This document shows positions 34,492 to 49,141 of a DNA stretch of 64,000 nt, in pieces. Each line of letters begins with the position of its first letter. Position 1 is the first letter of the stretch. The notes beneath the pieces are model-generated. The model ran no database searches. It was not told the DNA's origin and worked only from the letters and a program-made list of their open reading frames with translations. The translations under genes and the position numbers were made by a program. Origin of the DNA: Nitrosopumilus sp. (GTDB taxonomy: Archaea; Thermoproteota; Nitrososphaeria; Nitrososphaerales; Nitrosopumilaceae). The stretch lies in the NCBI GenBank assembly GCA_965219345.1, contig OZ244732.1, positions 1,536,001-1,600,000 on the forward strand. The letters run 5' to 3'.

Positions 34492-34535
34492 TTTACTATT
34501 ATCTATATCATGATAACTAAAGGTTTACTTTTTGT

Positions 34536-34585
34536 GGGACGGAAGTTAACGGGAGCTGATCCTTCTTGGGAAAGGCCGGGAGCTG
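34536..34585 (+). repeat. left terminal inverted repeat
   Basis: GGGACGGAAGTTAACGGGAGCTGATCCTTCTTGGGAAAGGCCGGGAGCTG. Confidence 0.95.
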
Positions 34586-34643
34586 CCTACCTGGGCATGA
34601 AATGTGGTCAAGGGAGGAATCACAAAAGTTCTTTGAAATTGTT

Positions 34644-35274
34644 CTATCGGCGGCGGTGTCTCTTAGTTAGATTCCACTTGGCCGCCCTATATGCCAATAT
34701 TAGAAGAATGAATACTATAACGACCAAATCGTAAGCAGACACCCAAACATCCAACGTGATAATCTCGAATAGGCCAACATAATACAGAATCGTGACACTG
34801 AACACTACTCCAAACAGTTTCTTGGTGGTTTTTCCTCTGCGCTTGATCCACACTCGATCTCCTGCTGAATGCTCACGATACTTTACAGCATCCCACAGCA
34901 TGTATGTCAGAAATATTACGACTACTGCTATGGGAAAGTCACTGGCATGTTCAGTTTGGGAGATGCGAAGCAGGTAAAAGTACTCGAAGAGTATTACCAA
35001 GTCAATAACGAATCTTATGGCACCCGGATTGGTATCCTTGTGTGGCTTGATTGACACAGACCTAGAGTACCCTACCCATCCAGAAACGATTAGTATGTAT
35101 GCAAATGTCAATGTCATGACAGTCGTGTGGTTGTCCGGCTCAAACATGGACTGGATTGGAATCATAATACCCGAGGCCAGCATGAAACTCTGACCCAGTA
35201 CTATCGCGAACAGCACGTGGATGGCTTGGGCATAACTGCGTGCGCTCAGGAGCCCCCATCTTGGGAGTTGTCAT
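34644..35274 (-). pseudogene. multi-TM membrane protein, likely frameshifted near the start
   Basis: 190-aa hydrophobic ORF; ATG at 35274 (MTTPKMG) joins the frame if the G5 run at ~35253-35257 loses one base. Confidence 0.6.
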
Positions 35275-35478
35275 CTATTCATCCTCTGGTACTAAACTGT
35301 CTTTGGGCATCGAATCCAAATCTGTCACAAAATAATAGTTTGTATCATTCGGATCTATCTATACTATGACTAGCGAATGGCACTTTGTACACTCGGCCTC
35401 AATCCAAGGATCATCTTCTTCGTAGAGTTTCTTCAAATCAGCCTCTTCGAGTATGTGTCCTCTGATTTTGCAGTATCT
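35275..35478 (-). pseudogene. 3' remnant of a zinc-finger gene cut by IS481, with internal stop
   Basis: ...YCKIRGHILEE...ECTKCHSLVIV*IDPNDTNYYF...PEDE*. Confidence 0.45.
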
Positions 35479-36675
35479 TGTACAGAAAGTAGTATACCCC
35501 AGAGCAGAAAACAATCCGGGGGGACAGGCATGAGGATACTGGACAGAGTCGAAATGAAGGTGCGCGGGTGGCTCGGGCGCCGTGCTTCCAGATGGAGGCG
35601 TACCAGGGGTCGCCGCATCAGGGTCATGAGAAAACTTGACGAGTCGAAGGTAAAATGGATAGTCCGCCAGAAGCGGAGGACGGATGCGGGCAGGCCCACC
35701 ACCGCCCAAATTGCAGAAACGATGGGCATCTCCGCAGTATGGGTCAAGAAGCTGTGGGCCAGGTACAGGCATGCCGGACCGGACGGCATGGCATACCCTG
35801 CCAGGATGGGCAGGCCCGCAACGGCATGCACGGACGCAGGGAACATTCTGCTGTAATCGGTGCCCGCAATGCAACAAACGGCGGGCAGGCACCGTCAGGG
35901 CGGCCATGCGGCAGGAGGGAATCAATATACCGCACAGGACAGTACACAGCATATTGAGGGAGGACGGCAGCGCAGACAGGCATCCGAGGAAGAGCAGGAG
36001 GCGGAGATGGGTGCGCTACGAGCGCACGTACTCGAACTCCATGTGGCATACCGACTGGAAGCAGATACGCGGGGGCATGTACGACGGCAGGTGGTTCCTG
36101 TGCTACGAGGACGACGCATCAAGGTTCGTCACCGGGTATGGCGTGTTTGATAACGCCACCGCAGACAACGCGCTTGCCGTGCTGGAGCGGGCCATAGTGG
36201 ACCACGGCAGGCCGGCCTCGATAATGACTGACCACGGCAGCCAGTTCTATGCCAACAAGAAGGAGACCGCAAAGAGGGGCGAGAGTGATTTTGAGAAGAG
36301 GCTTGTCAGGCTAGGCATACGCCAGATACTTGCAGGAGTGGGGCACCCCCAGACAAACGGCAAGCTCGAGAGGCTTCACGGAGAGATACAGCGAAAACTG
36401 CACCATTTTGAGGGATCCTCGTACGGTACGGCAGTCAAGGCAGATCCCGACTGCCACGTGGGAGGGCCGTTCCACACCGGCGGTGCAAGGGATCCAATGG
36501 AACGATTCATTGACTGGTACAACAACTCGCGTGCCCACATGTCCCTTGACTGGGAAGACCAGGAGACTTCCGCCCAGGCGTTTGTACGCAAGATGGCCCA
36601 AAGGCAAAAGGGTAATAGATACAGAGACCGGTGAGGAGTATGATGTCGGTTAGAGGGTATACTACTTTCTGTACA
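35479..36675 (+). mobile_element. IS481-family insertion sequence (1,197 bp), transposase frameshifted
   Basis: 21-bp TIRs TGTACAGAAAGTAGTATACCC / GGGTATACTACTTTCTGTACA; rve core WHTDWK, DDASRF, TDHGSQF, PQTNGKLER. Confidence 0.93.
35626..36653 (+). pseudogene. IS481 transposase split across three frames
   Basis: MRKLDESKVKWIVRQK HTH part, RREHSAV segment, and catalytic core in different frames; C-terminus also shifted. Confidence 0.85.
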
Positions 36676-36680
36676 CCACA

Positions 36681-37280
36681 ATGCATGACGCCTTTGGAAT
36701 AAAGGTAAACGTGAGGGGAACCCCAAACTCGTTTGATTCTGCAAAAGATCTGGCAAGGCGCAACAAATTCCAATTCGAGGCGTGGGCAGTCACGCTGATC
36801 CCCAATGTCCTGCCAAACACCAAGCAGGTAGGCGACAAGGGGGTTGATGGCAGAGGATACATCCATCTGGGCAAGAACAAAGACGGGAAGCGAATAGATG
36901 CCAAGATAATCGTGTCCGTGAAAGGAGGGGGCAACTTGACGCCGTCAATGGTGCGGGATTTGGCAGGCACCATGAGCAGTGAAAAGGCAAAGTTGGGCGT
37001 GTTCGTGTGCCTTAAGGAGCCCACGCGAAAGATGAGGGAGTCAGCGGCATCAGAAAAATTCTTCAGCACGCCTTTTGAGGAATCATACCCAAAATTGCAG
37101 ATATACACCACTTGCAGAATTTCTAATAAACTGCTGGTAGTTTTGGAATCATACCCAAAATTGCAGATATACACCATATCGGACTACAACGGGATCAAGC
37201 CAAACCTGCCGTCACTAGCAGACTTTGTCAAGGCTCCCCGGTCAGAGATGGATCCAAAAGGAATGCAAACCACGCTTTAG
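36681..37280 (+). pseudogene. C-terminal Mrr-like restriction endonuclease domain of a DNA methyltransferase fusion, 5'-truncated by IS481
   Basis: FQFEAWAV, GDKGVDGRGY, IIVSVKGG, MVRDLAGT...GVFVCL.EPT..M, YPKLQIYT. Confidence 0.75.
37079..37176 (+). repeat. 32-bp perfect direct repeat flanking a 34-bp unique insert (repeat-spacer-repeat)
   Basis: GGAATCATACCCAAAATTGCAGATATACACCA at 37079-37110 and 37145-37176. Confidence 0.95.
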
Positions 37281-37368
37281 GGAGACAATCTGAGAAGATT
37301 TACCACCCGAAGATTACCCAGAACCTGTTAACGGTACCTTTATTTACACTCTCAATTCAGGCGACACA

Positions 37369-38154
37369 ATGACAACAAAAACTACCTCAAAAATGGTAAT
37401 CCTGTTAGGGATAACGGCACTGTTAATCGCCATGCCGTTCTCTAGTACAGCGTTGGCCCAAGCAAGCGGTTTGCAACACATGTACACCCCTGACATCATA
37501 AGTCATAGTAGCAATCAAGCCAATATATGGAATGCGCCGGAGCACGTGTACTCCCCTGACATCATAAGTCATATAGACGGACTGCTCGATGGCACCATCC
37601 CAACTGCCAAAGAGTTCATGATTGGGAATATGACGGTGTTGCTGACCACGAGTGTGGATACAATTCAACCCAATTCATACGTCATCAAGACTATCGTGAC
37701 GCATGACGGTGTCGAACAGCCGGATCTGACCCTCAAATACAAGGTAAAGATCTATGATAACGGTACGTACCATGTGGTCAACGCCGACTTTAACATGCTG
37801 GTGACAGACACCTACATTAGGGATGTAACCAAGTCAATACCCAAAGTCGTGTGGCTGCCTGGATGCGGTGCGACCGTGGTGTTGATCGGATATGGTTCTG
37901 GAAGCAACGTGGGTTGTTATGGTGCCGTCGATGTGGATGCCTCGGTATCGGCATCATCTGCATCCATAACATGGGACGCAGACAGCGTAGTCAACTGGCT
38001 GATATGGACATTCACATACGAACGTGGTTATGCCAACATAGTAGGTCAGGAATACGAGTTCAACATCAACAGCGGCTCGATAACCACAAGTGGGGACTAT
38101 TCGTCAACCGCTCAACATGCCATAGGCGGAGTCTTCTTCTACATCGTGGAGTAA
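37369..38154 (+). CDS. secreted hypothetical protein
   Basis: Signal peptide ...STALAQ; internal H.Y.PDIISH duplication; T-rich tract after stop. Confidence 0.7.
   Translation: MTTKTTSKMVILLGITALLIAMPFSSTALAQASGLQHMYTPDIISHSSNQANIWNAPEHVYSPDIISHIDGLLDGTIPTAKEFMIGNMTVLLTTSVDTIQPNSYVIKTIVTHDGVEQPDLTLKYKVKIYDNGTYHVVNADFNMLVTDTYIRDVTKSIPKVVWLPGCGATVVLIGYGSGSNVGCYGAVDVDASVSASSASITWDADSVVNWLIWTFTYERGYANIVGQEYEFNINSGSITTSGDYSSTAQHAIGGVFFYIVE
37477..37573 (+). repeat. 31-bp direct repeat (2 mismatches) flanking a 35-bp unique insert, 66-bp period
   Basis: CACATGTACACCCCTGACATCATAAGTCATA 37477-37507 vs CACGTGTACTCCCCTGACATCATAAGTCATA 37543-37573. Confidence 0.9.
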
Positions 38155-38155
38155 C

Positions 38156-38592
38156 ATGTCTCCCATCCCCTCTTTTTTATTTAAAATAAAATCATGCACG
38201 TGGTTTGCAATATCGGGTTTGGGAATAATCGGGGCGGCACACCAACTTGCCAACATGGTAATGCTGTTCGATTTTCTCGGTACCGTATGGTGTATTGGAC
38301 TGGCCGCAGTCGCCATGTTCGTTGTAATGGCAACGATCGGAGCGCTCAAGATACGCCACACTTTGGGGTGGTTCATGTGGGTGTATGTGCCATCCCTAAT
38401 GGCAGTCGGCGCCTTTCTCACAGGATGGCAGTGGAGTTTCATAGGGCCAGTCTGTTTCGGGGGATTCGGGAGTATGCAGGCTGGATTATTTTGATCTCTA
38501 GAAACTTTACAGATGATTGTCTTGGCGTGGCGCTCATAATAGGGGGCATATTTGTCCTCAAGCGGACGGGTCCGCGCGCAAAGGGAATCTAA
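38156..38592 (+). pseudogene. small multi-TM membrane protein, probably frameshifted
   Basis: Hydrophobic ORF 38156-38494 continues as a hydrophobic tail in another frame after the G5 run near 38460. Confidence 0.45.
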
Positions 38593-38728
38593 AAGCAAAA
38601 CTGGGAATTGGCAAATAATACCCAAATTCAAGGGATCAGACATCAACACAATGGTTCAAGCCAAACAACCAAGAAAAGTATCCACACAAGATCCGATAAC
38701 AAAGCACTGGTTCGTGTGGGAATACTAA

Positions 38729-38926
38729 TTATCGTAGCTCTTCATCATCCACGTCTGGGACAACCATCCCGGTATCCCGTCGTTTTTTCAAATACTCGCA
38801 TGCAAACATCTGCATGTTTCCGCATTTGTGGCAAAGCTTCAATTCTGCCGGAAACGGAATCTCGGTCGTAAATTTGGTTTTGGGATCCGTGAGCATGTCG
38901 CTTAACGGATATTTGCAGATTGGCAC
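38729..38926 (-). CDS. small zinc-ribbon protein (possibly 5'-damaged)
   Basis: LCHKCGNMQMF. Confidence 0.5.
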   Translation of the reverse strand: MPICKYPLSDMLTDPKTKFTTEIPFPAELKLCHKCGNMQMFACEYLKKRRDTGMVVPDVDDEELR

Positions 38927-39300
38927 AAATATTAGGACACGTCATCTGTCGCAGCGTCACATTTGCTCATTGTGATGTGACTATGCCATGTCTTATTAAA
39001 CCGATCCCCGCCTCGAATCGCCTAAGTCCACATAACTAAAGTATATAATCCCCCGGCGATCAATCTGGAGAAGATCCGCCCAGCTCCCGATATTCCCAGG
39101 AAGAACCTTCTTGTCGGCAGGTGAGAACGACAAGTGGAAGACGATAATCCAGAACGTCGGCCTGCACGAGAACTAGGCATAACCCAAAGATCAAAATACC
39201 CCTTATTCCATACCAAGGCATGGTTTGTAAAGACTGCAAGGACTGGAAAGAGACCTTGGAGTGGCTAAACAGCAACATTCCCAAAGAATCTGAGTAGCTA

Positions 39301-39528
39301 CTACGTCATCTTGTCCAGTTTGTCATTGTCTACATAGTCTGGATCTCCCGGCTTGTTGAAGGCGTTTAGGTATGATTGAACCATGACCATGAGGTGTTCT
39401 GTCATGGTTTCAAGTGTTTTTGCCTTGTACCTCTTTTCTAATGCCCTGACGAAATCTTTCGAGAATATCTCGCTTGACACTAGAAACTCACGGATCATCT
39501 TGTCGCGCGGCGTGTATGCGGCTGACAC
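39301..39528 (-). CDS. hypothetical protein next to right TIR
   Basis: 75-aa ORF, TTTATA on minus strand about 25 nt upstream. Confidence 0.5.
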   Translation of the reverse strand: MSAAYTPRDKMIREFLVSSEIFSKDFVRALEKRYKAKTLETMTEHLMVMVQSYLNAFNKPGDPDYVDNDKLDKMT

Positions 39529-39579
39529 GGGATCAATCCTAATGGAGATCTCTATAAACCGATCCTTGGCCGACCGCCC

Positions 39580-39631
39580 CAGCTCCCGGCCTTTCCCAAG
39601 AAGGATCAGCTCCCGTTAACTTCCCAGTCCC
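39580..39631 (-). repeat. right terminal inverted repeat
   Basis: Reverse complement GGGACTGGGAAGTTAACGGGAGCTGATCCTTCTTGGGAAAGGCCGGGAGCTG. Confidence 0.95.
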
Positions 39632-39653
39632 CTTTTTGTTTTAAGGCTAAATA

Positions 39654-40010
39654 TTAAACTGGAAGGATAACCTTGCCTTCAAATTTTGGGATATTATCAA
39701 TCTCAAATGCTTTTTCCAAATTTTCTTTTTGTAGTTTCGTTACACCTTGAACTATTGTTTTTGAGGACCCAGTTTTGTCAACAAGTGCAAGAATAAAACC
39801 ACTATTATCGGTCAAAACAAAACCTGCTGATTCATCAACAAACGCATAGAGATTTTCTTCCCCTACAGGATTCCATACATTAGATTTGGTGTCAACCAAG
39901 GCAAGTGCTGGCATTGCTCGTCCATCGGTTAGTTTATTGAGATACTCTCTAGCTTCTGCAACTCTTTTTTGACCTAGTTTTAATGCCTGAAAATATTGCA
40001 TGTTTCTCAA
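39654..40010 (-). CDS. conserved thaumarchaeal hypothetical protein
   Basis: 118-aa ORF with host composition. Confidence 0.75.
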   Translation of the reverse strand: MRNMQYFQALKLGQKRVAEAREYLNKLTDGRAMPALALVDTKSNVWNPVGEENLYAFVDESAGFVLTDNSGFILALVDKTGSSKTIVQGVTKLQKENLEKAFEIDNIPKFEGKVILPV

Positions 40011-46603: not shown

Positions 46604-49141
46604 ATGGTTATTACCCCCCCCCCCGTACGTCCTTTAGTGACACTAAAAGAGAGAGACGGCATTGCAGCAATCCTAGTGATTGCAACGATAACAGCAATGA
46701 CTGCAAGCAGCGTGACAGACAATGAATCAAACAAGGCAGCATACCAGACATTTGCCTATGCAACCGGCAGTGCAACGCTGACCGTGTCCTCCATTGGTAC
46801 TGCCGGCACATCAGAAATCCATGTCGTGCTGTCCGAAGACGTCACAGTAAACAATGCGGCACCCGGGGACTTTGTGCTGTCTGGTAACATATCCACAGAC
46901 CCGACCGTGACTGGAATCGAGGCCGTTGCAGACACGCTTGTCCTTACCCTCAGCGATACGCTTGGTCATGATGATGACATCAGACTGGCATACACCAAAA
47001 CCACAGGCAGCATAGATGACATTCCTGCTCCTCCGTCCTTTGTCGGCTCCTTCCCGGTAGGCTCACAAGACACATTCCCGACAGGCCTGGCCTTCTCTGC
47101 TGACGGAACAAGGATGTTTGTCGTAGGTCTCTCTGGCGCTGACGTAAACGAGTACGCGCTGACTGCCCCATTTGACGTATCGACTTCTGCCTTTGTCGGC
47201 TCCTTCTCAGTAAATTCAGAAGAGACAACACCGCGAGGTCTGGCCTTCTCTGCTGACGGAACAAGGATGTTTGTCGTAGGTAATTTTAACGATGCCGTAA
47301 ACGAGTACGCGCTGACTGCCGCCTTTGACGTATCCAATGTCACCCTTGCCAGATCTTTCTCAGTGGCTTCACAGGCATCCCAACCACAGGGTCTGGCCTT
47401 CTCTGCTGACGGAACAAAGATGTTTGTCGTAAGTGGTGGTAATGACGATGACGTAGACGAGTACGCGCTAGCTGCCCCATTTGACATATCCAATGTCACC
47501 TTTGTCGACTCTTTCCCAGTGGCATCAGGAGAGACAACACCGCGAGGTCTGGCCTTCTCTGCTGACGGAACAAGGATGTTTGTCACAGGTAATACTGGCG
47601 ATGCTGTATACGAGTACGCGCTGACTGCCGCCTTTGACGTATCCACTGCCGCCTTTGTCGGCTCTTTCTCAGTGGCTTCAGAAGATACAAGTCTATTTGG
47701 CCTGACCTTCTCCAGCGACGGAACAAGGATGTTTGTTTCAGGTACCACTAACGATGTCGTATACCAGTACGCGCTATCAGAGCCATTTACTTTGCTTCCG
47801 CAGCCAAACTCGCTTGCCAGCTTTGCGGCAACCCAGGTCACAAACAACATCATGACACCGCCAGATGACGAGTCTACGGGGGGGTCAGATGCGTCTGGCC
47901 AGTCAGAGGATGCTATGGTGAATGTTCTTCCGACGCTGAGATACGATGTCGGATATGGTACGATTGCCAATGATCTGTCCCTGTTAACAACAGATCATAT
48001 TCATCCCACATATCACAATGCCATCAACCTTAGACAACCCGGCAGTGACAATCCCTGGATTGCCGTGTTTCCAGACTCTTTGACTACCACAGAGGGCGGC
48101 AGCCTTGTGGCATCCGGAGATCCCATAAGACCGTACGACTATCATAATCTTACTAATCAGGTACCTGCCATAACCTGTGCTACGGATAATTTTGGCCACG
48201 ACCCCACAATGCTTGCCGAATTTGACTACATCCCCGGTGCCACATATACCGGTACCGACACGTTTGACATTGTCATAAAAGAGTTCATCTATACTGGAGA
48301 TGCCGAATCCGCTGCATGTCTTGTCACCGGGGCAACCGAGACCATACCCGTAGAGATTACGGTAGGTGAAAAACCATCCGTAACGTTTAGGGATGACTTT
48401 ACAAAGTTCTCCAACAGTTCCGGCGTAGTGGTGCTTGAGCATATTGATGACCTGTTTGGTTTGCAACCTCCTAGTTTCTCCTTTCCGTTTCCCTCCTTTG
48501 ATCCCTTTGTAAGTGATGCAGTAACCGGACTTGACCTTCCCGAGGCGACATCTGGCGGATCACCTATAACTCCCGTAACTTTCGAAAACGGTACCAAAAA
48601 CTATGTCATCAGGGGCGTGTTTAGTAATGACTCCTTTTCATACAATATGACTGCCAGCCTGGCATACGGTACCGTTGCTGCAGACGGCACCATCACAGAG
48701 TACCTAAACGAGATTGCATCAAAGACAATTGACGTCATGCTGGATGCCACCAACGCCGATGCCCCCGTATGCTCGGCCAGTGTAACCGGTGATCTGGACT
48801 TTGGCAGCCTGGCATACGGCGACACCTCGGATCCAAAGCAACTTCTAATTAATAATACTGGCACCGGTCTTGTTGATGTGGACATATCTGCAACTCACTG
48901 GCTGTACAGTCATGACGAGCCAATCATGGATGTGGGGCAGACAAGGTACAGTCTTAGTAATTCGAACGATGCATATGCGGACAGAACCCCAATGTCTGAA
49001 GCTGACGCTACTCTTGTAAGCGGTTTGCTACTTGACCTTCCTTATTACCAATATCTGCAGGTTCAAATTGGTGACATCAGTTCGAACTTTGCAGGTCAGC
49101 TGACACAGACCATAACCACGACTGCAACCTGCAGCAGCTAG
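46604..49141 (+). CDS. large secreted/surface protein with Ig/SwmB-like domain and beta-propeller repeats
   Basis: Hydrophobic N-terminus; five ~49-50 aa repeats P.GLAFSADGTRMFV.G...D.V.EY.L.A.FDVS; C-terminal Ig-like segment. Confidence 0.8.
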   Translation: MVITPPPVRPLVTLKERDGIAAILVIATITAMTASSVTDNESNKAAYQTFAYATGSATLTVSSIGTAGTSEIHVVLSEDVTVNNAAPGDFVLSGNISTDPTVTGIEAVADTLVLTLSDTLGHDDDIRLAYTKTTGSIDDIPAPPSFVGSFPVGSQDTFPTGLAFSADGTRMFVVGLSGADVNEYALTAPFDVSTSAFVGSFSVNSEETTPRGLAFSADGTRMFVVGNFNDAVNEYALTAAFDVSNVTLARSFSVASQASQPQGLAFSADGTKMFVVSGGNDDDVDEYALAAPFDISNVTFVDSFPVASGETTPRGLAFSADGTRMFVTGNTGDAVYEYALTAAFDVSTAAFVGSFSVASEDTSLFGLTFSSDGTRMFVSGTTNDVVYQYALSEPFTLLPQPNSLASFAATQVTNNIMTPPDDESTGGSDASGQSEDAMVNVLPTLRYDVGYGTIANDLSLLTTDHIHPTYHNAINLRQPGSDNPWIAVFPDSLTTTEGGSLVASGDPIRPYDYHNLTNQVPAITCATDNFGHDPTMLAEFDYIPGATYTGTDTFDIVIKEFIYTGDAESAACLVTGATETIPVEITVGEKPSVTFRDDFTKFSNSSGVVVLEHIDDLFGLQPPSFSFPFPSFDPFVSDAVTGLDLPEATSGGSPITPVTFENGTKNYVIRGVFSNDSFSYNMTASLAYGTVAADGTITEYLNEIASKTIDVMLDATNADAPVCSASVTGDLDFGSLAYGDTSDPKQLLINNTGTGLVDVDISATHWLYSHDEPIMDVGQTRYSLSNSNDAYADRTPMSEADATLVSGLLLDLPYYQYLQVQIGDISSNFAGQLTQTITTTATCSS
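47035..47790 (+). repeat. five tandem ~147-150 bp coding repeats
   Basis: Recurring CTGGCCTTCTCTGCTGACGGAACAAGGATGTTTGTC and GAGTACGCGCT; boundaries approximate. Confidence 0.9.

Follow-up and report, generated by a model that had tools for sequence, protein, structure and literature searches.

Off-target integration by the type I-E system of Escherichia coli gives rise to neo-CRISPR units (Nivala, Shipman and Church 2018, as described in 10.1101/148544, PMC6698737, and PMC7054753). These units share with the structure described here, which was found in an archaeon of the genus Nitrosopumilus, a spacer-sized insert and a repeat-length duplication of non-CRISPR DNA, located outside the array. 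According to these citing texts, however, the E. coli work relies on Cas1-Cas2 over-produced in a bacterium, with circumstantial evidence only in two other species, whereas the scars reported here are natural, have been fixed in an archaeal genome, and occur by the dozen in two size classes. Moreover, and unlike the E. coli units as described there, one of these size classes fits a system that is now absent from the genome.

In Haloarcula hispanica, whose type I-B system holds a 30-bp repeat, displaced motifs are reported to result in duplications of 29, 31, 32, or 33 bp (Wang et al. 2016, PMC4872114). The end of the duplication is set there by distance, and not by sequence, and the 30-bp repeat is what this system has in common with the one proposed below. 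Its targets are engineered repeats within a leader-bearing array, whereas the target described here lies in unrelated coding DNA that does not resemble the repeat. Cas1-Cas2 from Pyrococcus furiosus integrates in vitro at non-CRISPR positions, and the likely harm of such events in vivo has been noted (PMC6698737). This case resembles the present one in being off-target integration by an archaeal Cas1-Cas2, but the products documented there are half-site and full-site products on plasmids in vitro, and not fixed genomic scars. Finally, ectopic spacer acquisition in Streptococcus thermophilus takes place inside arrays, away from the leader-proximal repeat (PMC7999890); according to this source, the target is a genuine CRISPR repeat, and no new repeat sequence is created. 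In a literature search that had most subscription journals outside its reach, no description of comparable natural scars in an archaeon came up.

A duplicated target with a spacer-sized insert

The window, that is, the whole stretch of 64,000 nucleotides that was analysed, holds the structure at the positions collected in Table 1. The earlier note had described a perfect 32-bp duplication around an AT-rich insert of 34 nt, with an in-frame gain of 66 bp, and both the sequence and the reading frame bear this description out. The starts of the two copies are 66 bp apart, and translation through the scar (...FEESYPKLQIYT TCRISNKLLVVL ESYPKLQIYT ISDYNGIKPNLP...) remains open and gains 22 codons. 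The boundaries are slightly ambiguous, in such a way that the true duplication may measure 30–32 bp, the insert then being of 34–36 nt. In the 1.91-Mb genome, both the 32-mer and the 34-mer are restricted to this locus, with up to 8 substitutions allowed.

Table 1. Position of the scars, the host gene, and the associated elements in the window, and of the I-B relic elsewhere in the genome.
Feature	Position	Strand	Description
Higher-GC island	34500..40000 (approx.)	.	42-61% GC vs 28-34% around; composition profile
Insertion sequence, truncates host gene	35480..36675	+	1196 bp; rve transposase ORF 35684-36634; single-copy (BLAST)
Host ORF, 3' remnant of a DNA methylase / Mrr-like REase fusion gene	36681..37280	+	199 aa; Pfam
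First target copy	37079..37110	+	32 bp, identical to 37145-37176; single copy in homologues and G007
Spacer-sized insert	37111..37144	+	34 nt, 32% GC; not in homologues, G007, or collections searched
Second target copy	37145..37176	+	32 bp, identical to 37079-37110; ~2x flank depth in run contigs
Second window scar	37477..37573	+	31-bp copies 37477-37507 / 37543-37573, 2 mismatches; 35-nt insert, period 66
I-B relic locus	G000 C1:1123016-1123343		Cas1b fragment, 30-bp repeat, 38-nt spacer, degenerate terminal repeat

The scar at 37079–37176 is a real, derived insertion. Alignment with homologues, which had been proposed as a check, confirmed a single ancestral copy at both the protein and the DNA level. 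All of the 15 aligned homologues (the 15 best or longest relatives) hold a single target copy without insert, which corresponds to an xYPKxQIxT segment, and the 22 extra residues are present in none of them. At the DNA level, a search for the gene in 40 relatives was positive in one congener, G007, which carries at least three copies with 73% identity. The pieces of these alignments overlap on one target copy, and the window exceeds the three G007 copies (L004, L005, and L007) by exactly 66 bp. Metagenome and genome contigs gave no exact match to the 32-mer that would represent a closer empty site, and the best empty site for this target is the 73%-identical gene of G007. The G007 copies correspond to the 3' part of a full methylase-REase gene and are identical over the aligned stretch; the multiplicity of these 3' parts suggests that the genus harbours a mobile element present in several copies.

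Read support was assessed by comparing Logan contigs of four runs against the stretch, X1 and X2 belonging to one study and X5 to a second one. Both X1 and X2 contain a 94-nt contig that spans the first copy, the insert, and the second copy, with a depth of 65 in X1 (flanks at 64.8 and 61.3) and of 148.7 in X2 (flanks at 175 and 205, i.e., 0.72–0.85 of the flanks). The 32-mer appears as a contig of its own at about double depth (130 in X1 and 290 in X2), as expected from two copies per genome, and a 96-nt contig from X5 covers the same junctions. The repeat-insert-repeat structure is thus found at flank depth in run contigs from two studies, as the read check had been intended to establish, although the assembly itself may derive from one of the supporting runs. 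An artefact of assembly or sequencing has a negligible probability, given that independently assembled contigs from the runs of two studies cross the junctions without any difference from the window, and that the depth of the 32-mer is doubled.

The gene that carries the scar had been described as a methyltransferase/REase gene. The family assignment stands: the host ORF matches Mrr_cat (4.2e-07) and NA-iREase1 (1.7e-08) in Pfam and has 1620 relatives at E <= 0.001 (HMMER, 1.84 billion representatives), the longer of which prove to be DNA methylases whose C-terminal domain is REase-like. The gene itself, however, is not complete. The ORF aligns to residues ~311–489 or ~393–570 of the full-length relatives, its 5' two thirds are gone, and tblastn located no adjoining methylase part in the window. 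Its start is 5 bp to the right of an insertion sequence (Pfam rve, 1.7e-12; terminal inverted repeats of ~21 bp; ~60% GC), at which no target duplication was seen. Since the left flank of this element does not correspond to the methylase's lost 5' portion, a deletion or rearrangement came with it. The scar therefore sits in a dead gene remnant, of which only the last ~190 residues are left, right behind the insertion sequence. Further downstream, the window holds a 153-bp tandem repeat (47037–47775; 4.8 copies, 78% match), which probably encodes a repeat-domain protein.

Several other origins of the duplication were considered and rejected. Tandem duplication by slippage does not agree with the 34 unrelated nt placed between the copies, nor with the sequence past the second copy, which is unlike the insert. 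Target-site duplications of insertion sequences are much shorter than 32 bp, and insertion of an IS or a MITE was discarded on the basis that the insert is unique in the genome and lacks terminal inverted repeats. A functional CRISPR array was discarded as well, as there are two copies only, embedded in a coding remnant, and no third copy in the genome. With respect to templated repair, which the earlier note had raised as a caveat because insert and repeat share TTGCAGA, the coincidence is at the level of chance, with a shared 7-mer appearing in 12% of 2000 shuffles. The search for a local template of the insert in the 3 kb on either side resulted in a best score of 11, compared to 11.6 +/- 1.3 for shuffles, 80% of which equal or beat the insert. 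Local similarity being no higher than in shuffles, a templated patchwork was rejected.

Scans of viral, genome, and metagenome contigs for the exact 34-mer were negative; with up to three mismatches it has no match in 150 congeners, and it is not found among the 163 spacers of the resident array. These donor searches were exact or near-exact, and a diverged donor would escape them. Tracing the insert, for which the earlier note had named the host genome, viromes, and CRISPR spacer sets, thus yielded no donor and hence no PAM, and for this reason the case for this scar rests on its geometry. The 32% GC of the insert suggests that the donor came from AT-rich DNA (for example, a Nitrosopumilus chromosome or its viruses), and not from the island in which the scar lies.

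Two size classes of scars in the genome

A genome-wide census collected direct-repeat pairs with a period of 40–140, tolerating mismatches, and kept those that were isolated, non-tandem, and outside the array. A total of 47 pairs was obtained: two with periods of 40–61, one with a period of 63, eight with 64–68, 29 with 70–76, and seven with 77–140. From the density at other periods, only 0.7 pairs would be expected at 70–76 and 0.5 at 64–68 (Poisson P of 7e-36 and 9e-8, respectively). Curation led to a list of 38 rows, reduced to 37 scars by removing a paralogue that repeated the insert of another row. These ~37 isolated repeat-insert-repeat scars are distributed in two size classes, a long one with ~30 members and a short one with 7.

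Scars of the long class hold a 36-bp duplication with a period of 70–76, the observed copies ranging from 35 to 38 bp. For three long-class scars, whose periods are 71–74, the aligner shortened the copies to 29, 32, and 34 bp, with a mismatch in every case, and one further scar combines the 36-bp duplication with a 32-nt insert (period 68). Seven inserts of this class reproduce, over their full length, sequences found elsewhere on the chromosome, six of them exactly and one with one mismatch. For these donor-matched scars, the period minus the donor match equals 36 bp in five of the seven, and 37–38 in the other two. Six of the seven inserts start with T (strand as listed), and inspection by eye of the sequences beside the seven donor sites revealed no clear flanking motif that could represent a PAM. 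At several sites, deletion of one long-class unit rejoins interrupted ORFs (for example, 142/82 into 199 aa, 185/173 into 303, and 439/257 into 666). An I-G integrase misdirecting self-derived prespacers would leave this pattern.

The short class, to which the window scar belongs, comprises scars with periods of 66, 64, 67, 65, 65, 66, and 66, and with copies of 27, 30, 31, 31, 30, 32, and 31 bp, bearing one or two mismatches in three of them. No donor was found in the genome for any of the seven inserts, nor, consequently, a PAM. Two of these scars are in the window, both with a period of 66 and both inside the higher-GC island. The second one is located 400 bp downstream of the first, in frame in an ORF (37369–38154) for an unannotated secreted protein, directly behind the signal peptide. 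Its 22 residues are missing from all four homologues, and its insert was not found in 150 congeners. The preference for GC-rich surroundings extends to the whole class: a GC content of at least 0.42 in the surrounding 2.1 kb is observed for 7/7 short scars, 13/30 long scars, and 15% of the genome windows (hypergeometric P 0.0075, in a post hoc test). Clustering of the short scars was not significant, with three of the seven having a short-class scar as nearest neighbour (permutation P = 0.13).

The target sites are unlike either canonical repeat. In register, neither class is similar to the I-G or the I-B repeat, with means of 13.9 and 12.1 matches versus 14.5 and 12.6 for random sites, and their sequence itself names no enzyme. 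One hot spot is represented by three paralogous copies, of which C1:333045 is empty, 404166 bears a 36+38 scar, and 1448839 a 31+34 scar; the two inserts have nothing in common, and between the events the duplication limits differ by 7 and 2 nt. The target of this hot spot (G000:C1:333045, 404166, and 1448839) contains a CACAGA...TCTGTG palindrome.

The interpretation of the window scar as spacer integration is made much stronger by ~36 other scars that share its layout, seven of them with donor-matched inserts. These scars, together with the derived state and the read contigs, support the natural ectopic spacer acquisition that the earlier note had put forward, and the scar at 37079–37176 can be attributed with considerable confidence to ectopic integration of a spacer by Cas1-Cas2. 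A repair or replication accident unrelated to CRISPR, through filler DNA and a local duplication or through template switching, would agree with the absence of a donor, a PAM, or an enzyme signature at this scar. Nevertheless, such an accident gives no reason for the quantisation of sizes at 64–67 and 70–76, which match both CRISPR geometries known in the genus, and the similarity of the insert to the 3 kb on either side is at chance level, making this origin improbable. Even less credit can be given to an unknown integrase or a tiny mobile element with a target duplication of ~30 bp. The length of 32 bp, far above the target duplications of insertion sequences, requires an unusual enzyme anyway; however, a mobile element would recur, whereas the seven inserts of the short class differ from one another, save one paralogous copy, and lack terminal inverted repeats (as checked for 37111–37144). 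The unknown integrase that had been offered as an alternative is thus not needed.

CRISPR systems of the genome and its congeners

If Cas1-Cas2 integrated the spacer, the dimensions of the scar should be compared with those of the systems present in the genome and in its relatives. A search of the genome with Cas1 models matched two places. The first one is a complete type I-G locus, consisting of Cas4g/Cas1g (6.3e-227), Cas2, the array, and then Csb2, Cas7g, Cas8g1/Csx17, and Cas3g; cas1 and cas2 are therefore present, with Cas4g/Cas1g and Cas2 adjoining the I-G array. This array holds 164 repeats of 36 bp, with a period of mostly 71–76 and spacers of mostly 35–40 nt, none of the 163 being shorter than 35 nt. 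In public records, relatives of Cas4g/Cas1g are found in Nitrosopumilus and Nitrosopumilaceae MAGs and, at ~50–57% identity, in Dehalococcoidia and Caldilineaceae MAGs (L170–L190), a distribution which hints that the I-G adaptation module may be common to both domains.

The second place is a fragment of Cas1b (type I-B) of 83 aa with an internal stop. An intact 30-bp I-B repeat (C1:1123248-1123277) abuts this fragment, and the spacer and the degenerate repeat listed in Table 1 follow. A plain repeat search near the fragment detected none, and the two-repeat relic was found by means of a mismatch-tolerant scan. The relic sits in native DNA of 32% GC.

Full type I-B systems were looked for in 81 genomes of the genus with a Cas1b model, which resulted in six full-length hits above the curated cut-off. 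In all six congeners, the array beside the full Cas1b is built of 30-bp repeats spaced at periods of 64–69, the modal period being 66 in five of them and a tie between 65 and 66 in the other one. Their spacers are mostly of 34–39 nt, with a mode of 36. The geometry of the short class is the geometry of these I-B arrays. At the window scar, the insert of 34 nt (34–36) has the length of a spacer, given that those of the I-B congeners are mostly of 34–39 nt and those of the I-G array of 35–40 nt. The 32-bp duplication does not have the length of the resident I-G repeat, but it is at most 2 bp from the 30-bp I-B repeat. Comparison with the arrays of this genome, as the earlier note had recommended, gives a divided answer: the resident array (36 bp and 35–40 nt) does not fit, while the I-B relic and the intact I-B arrays of the six congeners do so to within 2 bp of repeat length.

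The relation between scars and systems was also explored in two congeners. G017 (1.94 Mb, read whole) has an I-B array of 58 repeats. Its I-G system is reduced to a Cas4/1g fragment of 47 aa and a single isolated repeat, with no hits for Cas2, Csb2, Cas7g, or Cas8g1. This genome holds five scars with a period of 72–74 and observed copies of 33–40 bp, and the persistence of I-G-sized scars despite the loss of I-G indicates that scars can outlive their system. No 30/66 scars were found in the whole of G017, whose I-B system looks active; a 29/68 pair located 4.7 kb from the array is itself similar to the I-B repeat. G091, which has both systems, presents in its first 400 kb two 36–37/73 scars and one doubtful 29/66 pair with three mismatches. 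This cross-genome test of I-B scars, covering the whole of G017 and the first 400 kb of G091, is a weak one. G017:C1 also contains a multi-copy element (loci L038–L134, e.g., 1086776, 1305769, and 1221667), listed 7 times, in which two copies of ~29–37 nt with TACGGCA.CAGCATTACTGACAGTCTTTGCAG flank an insert containing a G-run, with a period of 72–81. Because the insert is shared, these loci constitute a repeat family and not independent scars.

Proposed integrase rulers and the scars as a record

In the proposed mechanism, Cas1-Cas2 loaded with a prespacer of ~34–36 nt would have attacked the gene on opposite strands, at points staggered by ~30–32 bp. Gap repair would then have duplicated the stretch between both points of attack, leaving a copy, the insert, and a second copy. 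Such a stagger would fit a 30-bp ruler, and not the 36-bp ruler of the resident I-G system, and an I-B-like adaptation module would therefore be the most likely agent. This module could be one that the lineage itself possessed and has since lost, or one from another Nitrosopumilus in which the mobile island previously resided. The derived state of the insertion, its geometry, the two size classes, and the relics are observed; the catalysis, the identity of the integrase, and the timing are what we infer from them.

Integration by a type I-B-like integrase with a 30-bp ruler is thus the reading to which we lean, with a probability somewhat above even. Under such a ruler, the 32-bp copy would involve two bases that are identical by chance (~16%, by our own estimate) or a measure of 32 bp. 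The latter is within the reach of an I-B enzyme, since PMC4872114 reports duplications of 29, 31, 32, or 33 bp. Alternatively, the resident I-G Cas4/1g-Cas2 could have carried out the ectopic integration, by occasionally measuring ~31 bp at non-canonical targets. This system is complete and adjoins an array of 164 repeats, and its frequent off-target integration is evident. In addition, one hot spot has received both 36-bp and 31-bp events, for which a single enzyme would be simpler, and G017, with I-B only, is devoid of short scars. However, the I-G duplication bounded by donors is of 36 bp in five of seven cases, and no scar falls between the two modes if the trimmed long copies (29, 32, and 34 bp) are taken to be 36-bp duplications. 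The second mode, besides, coincides with the length of the I-B repeat. A duplication of 32 bp leaves an insert of 34 nt, below the shortest of the 163 I-G spacers, and all seven short scars are in high-GC islands, versus 13 of the 30 long ones, with both scars of the 34500–40000 island being short. For these reasons, a short measure by the I-G integrase is considered unlikely, and an I-B-like ruler provides the better fit.

The confinement of the short scars to high-GC islands raises the possibility that they may have been written in earlier hosts. It is an even bet that the scars are fossils which outlive their CRISPR system, with this genome recording both a 36-bp I-G ruler and a ~30-bp I-B ruler, and a congener presenting the reverse situation. 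If this is true, the geometry of scars can reveal the past CRISPR content of a genome as well as the hosts through which mobile islands have passed.

Evidence for off-target spacer integration comes mainly from E. coli with over-produced Cas1-Cas2. The Nitrosopumilus genomes described here preserve dozens of such events, fixed in nature, and the record they form includes inserts of self origin, disrupted genes, and a hot spot among the targets. This record bears on the cost of CRISPR adaptation, on rulers that operate without repeat motifs, and on the birth of new repeats and arrays. To it, the scar at 37079–37176 adds a second recorded ruler length, which agrees with a system no longer present in this genome.
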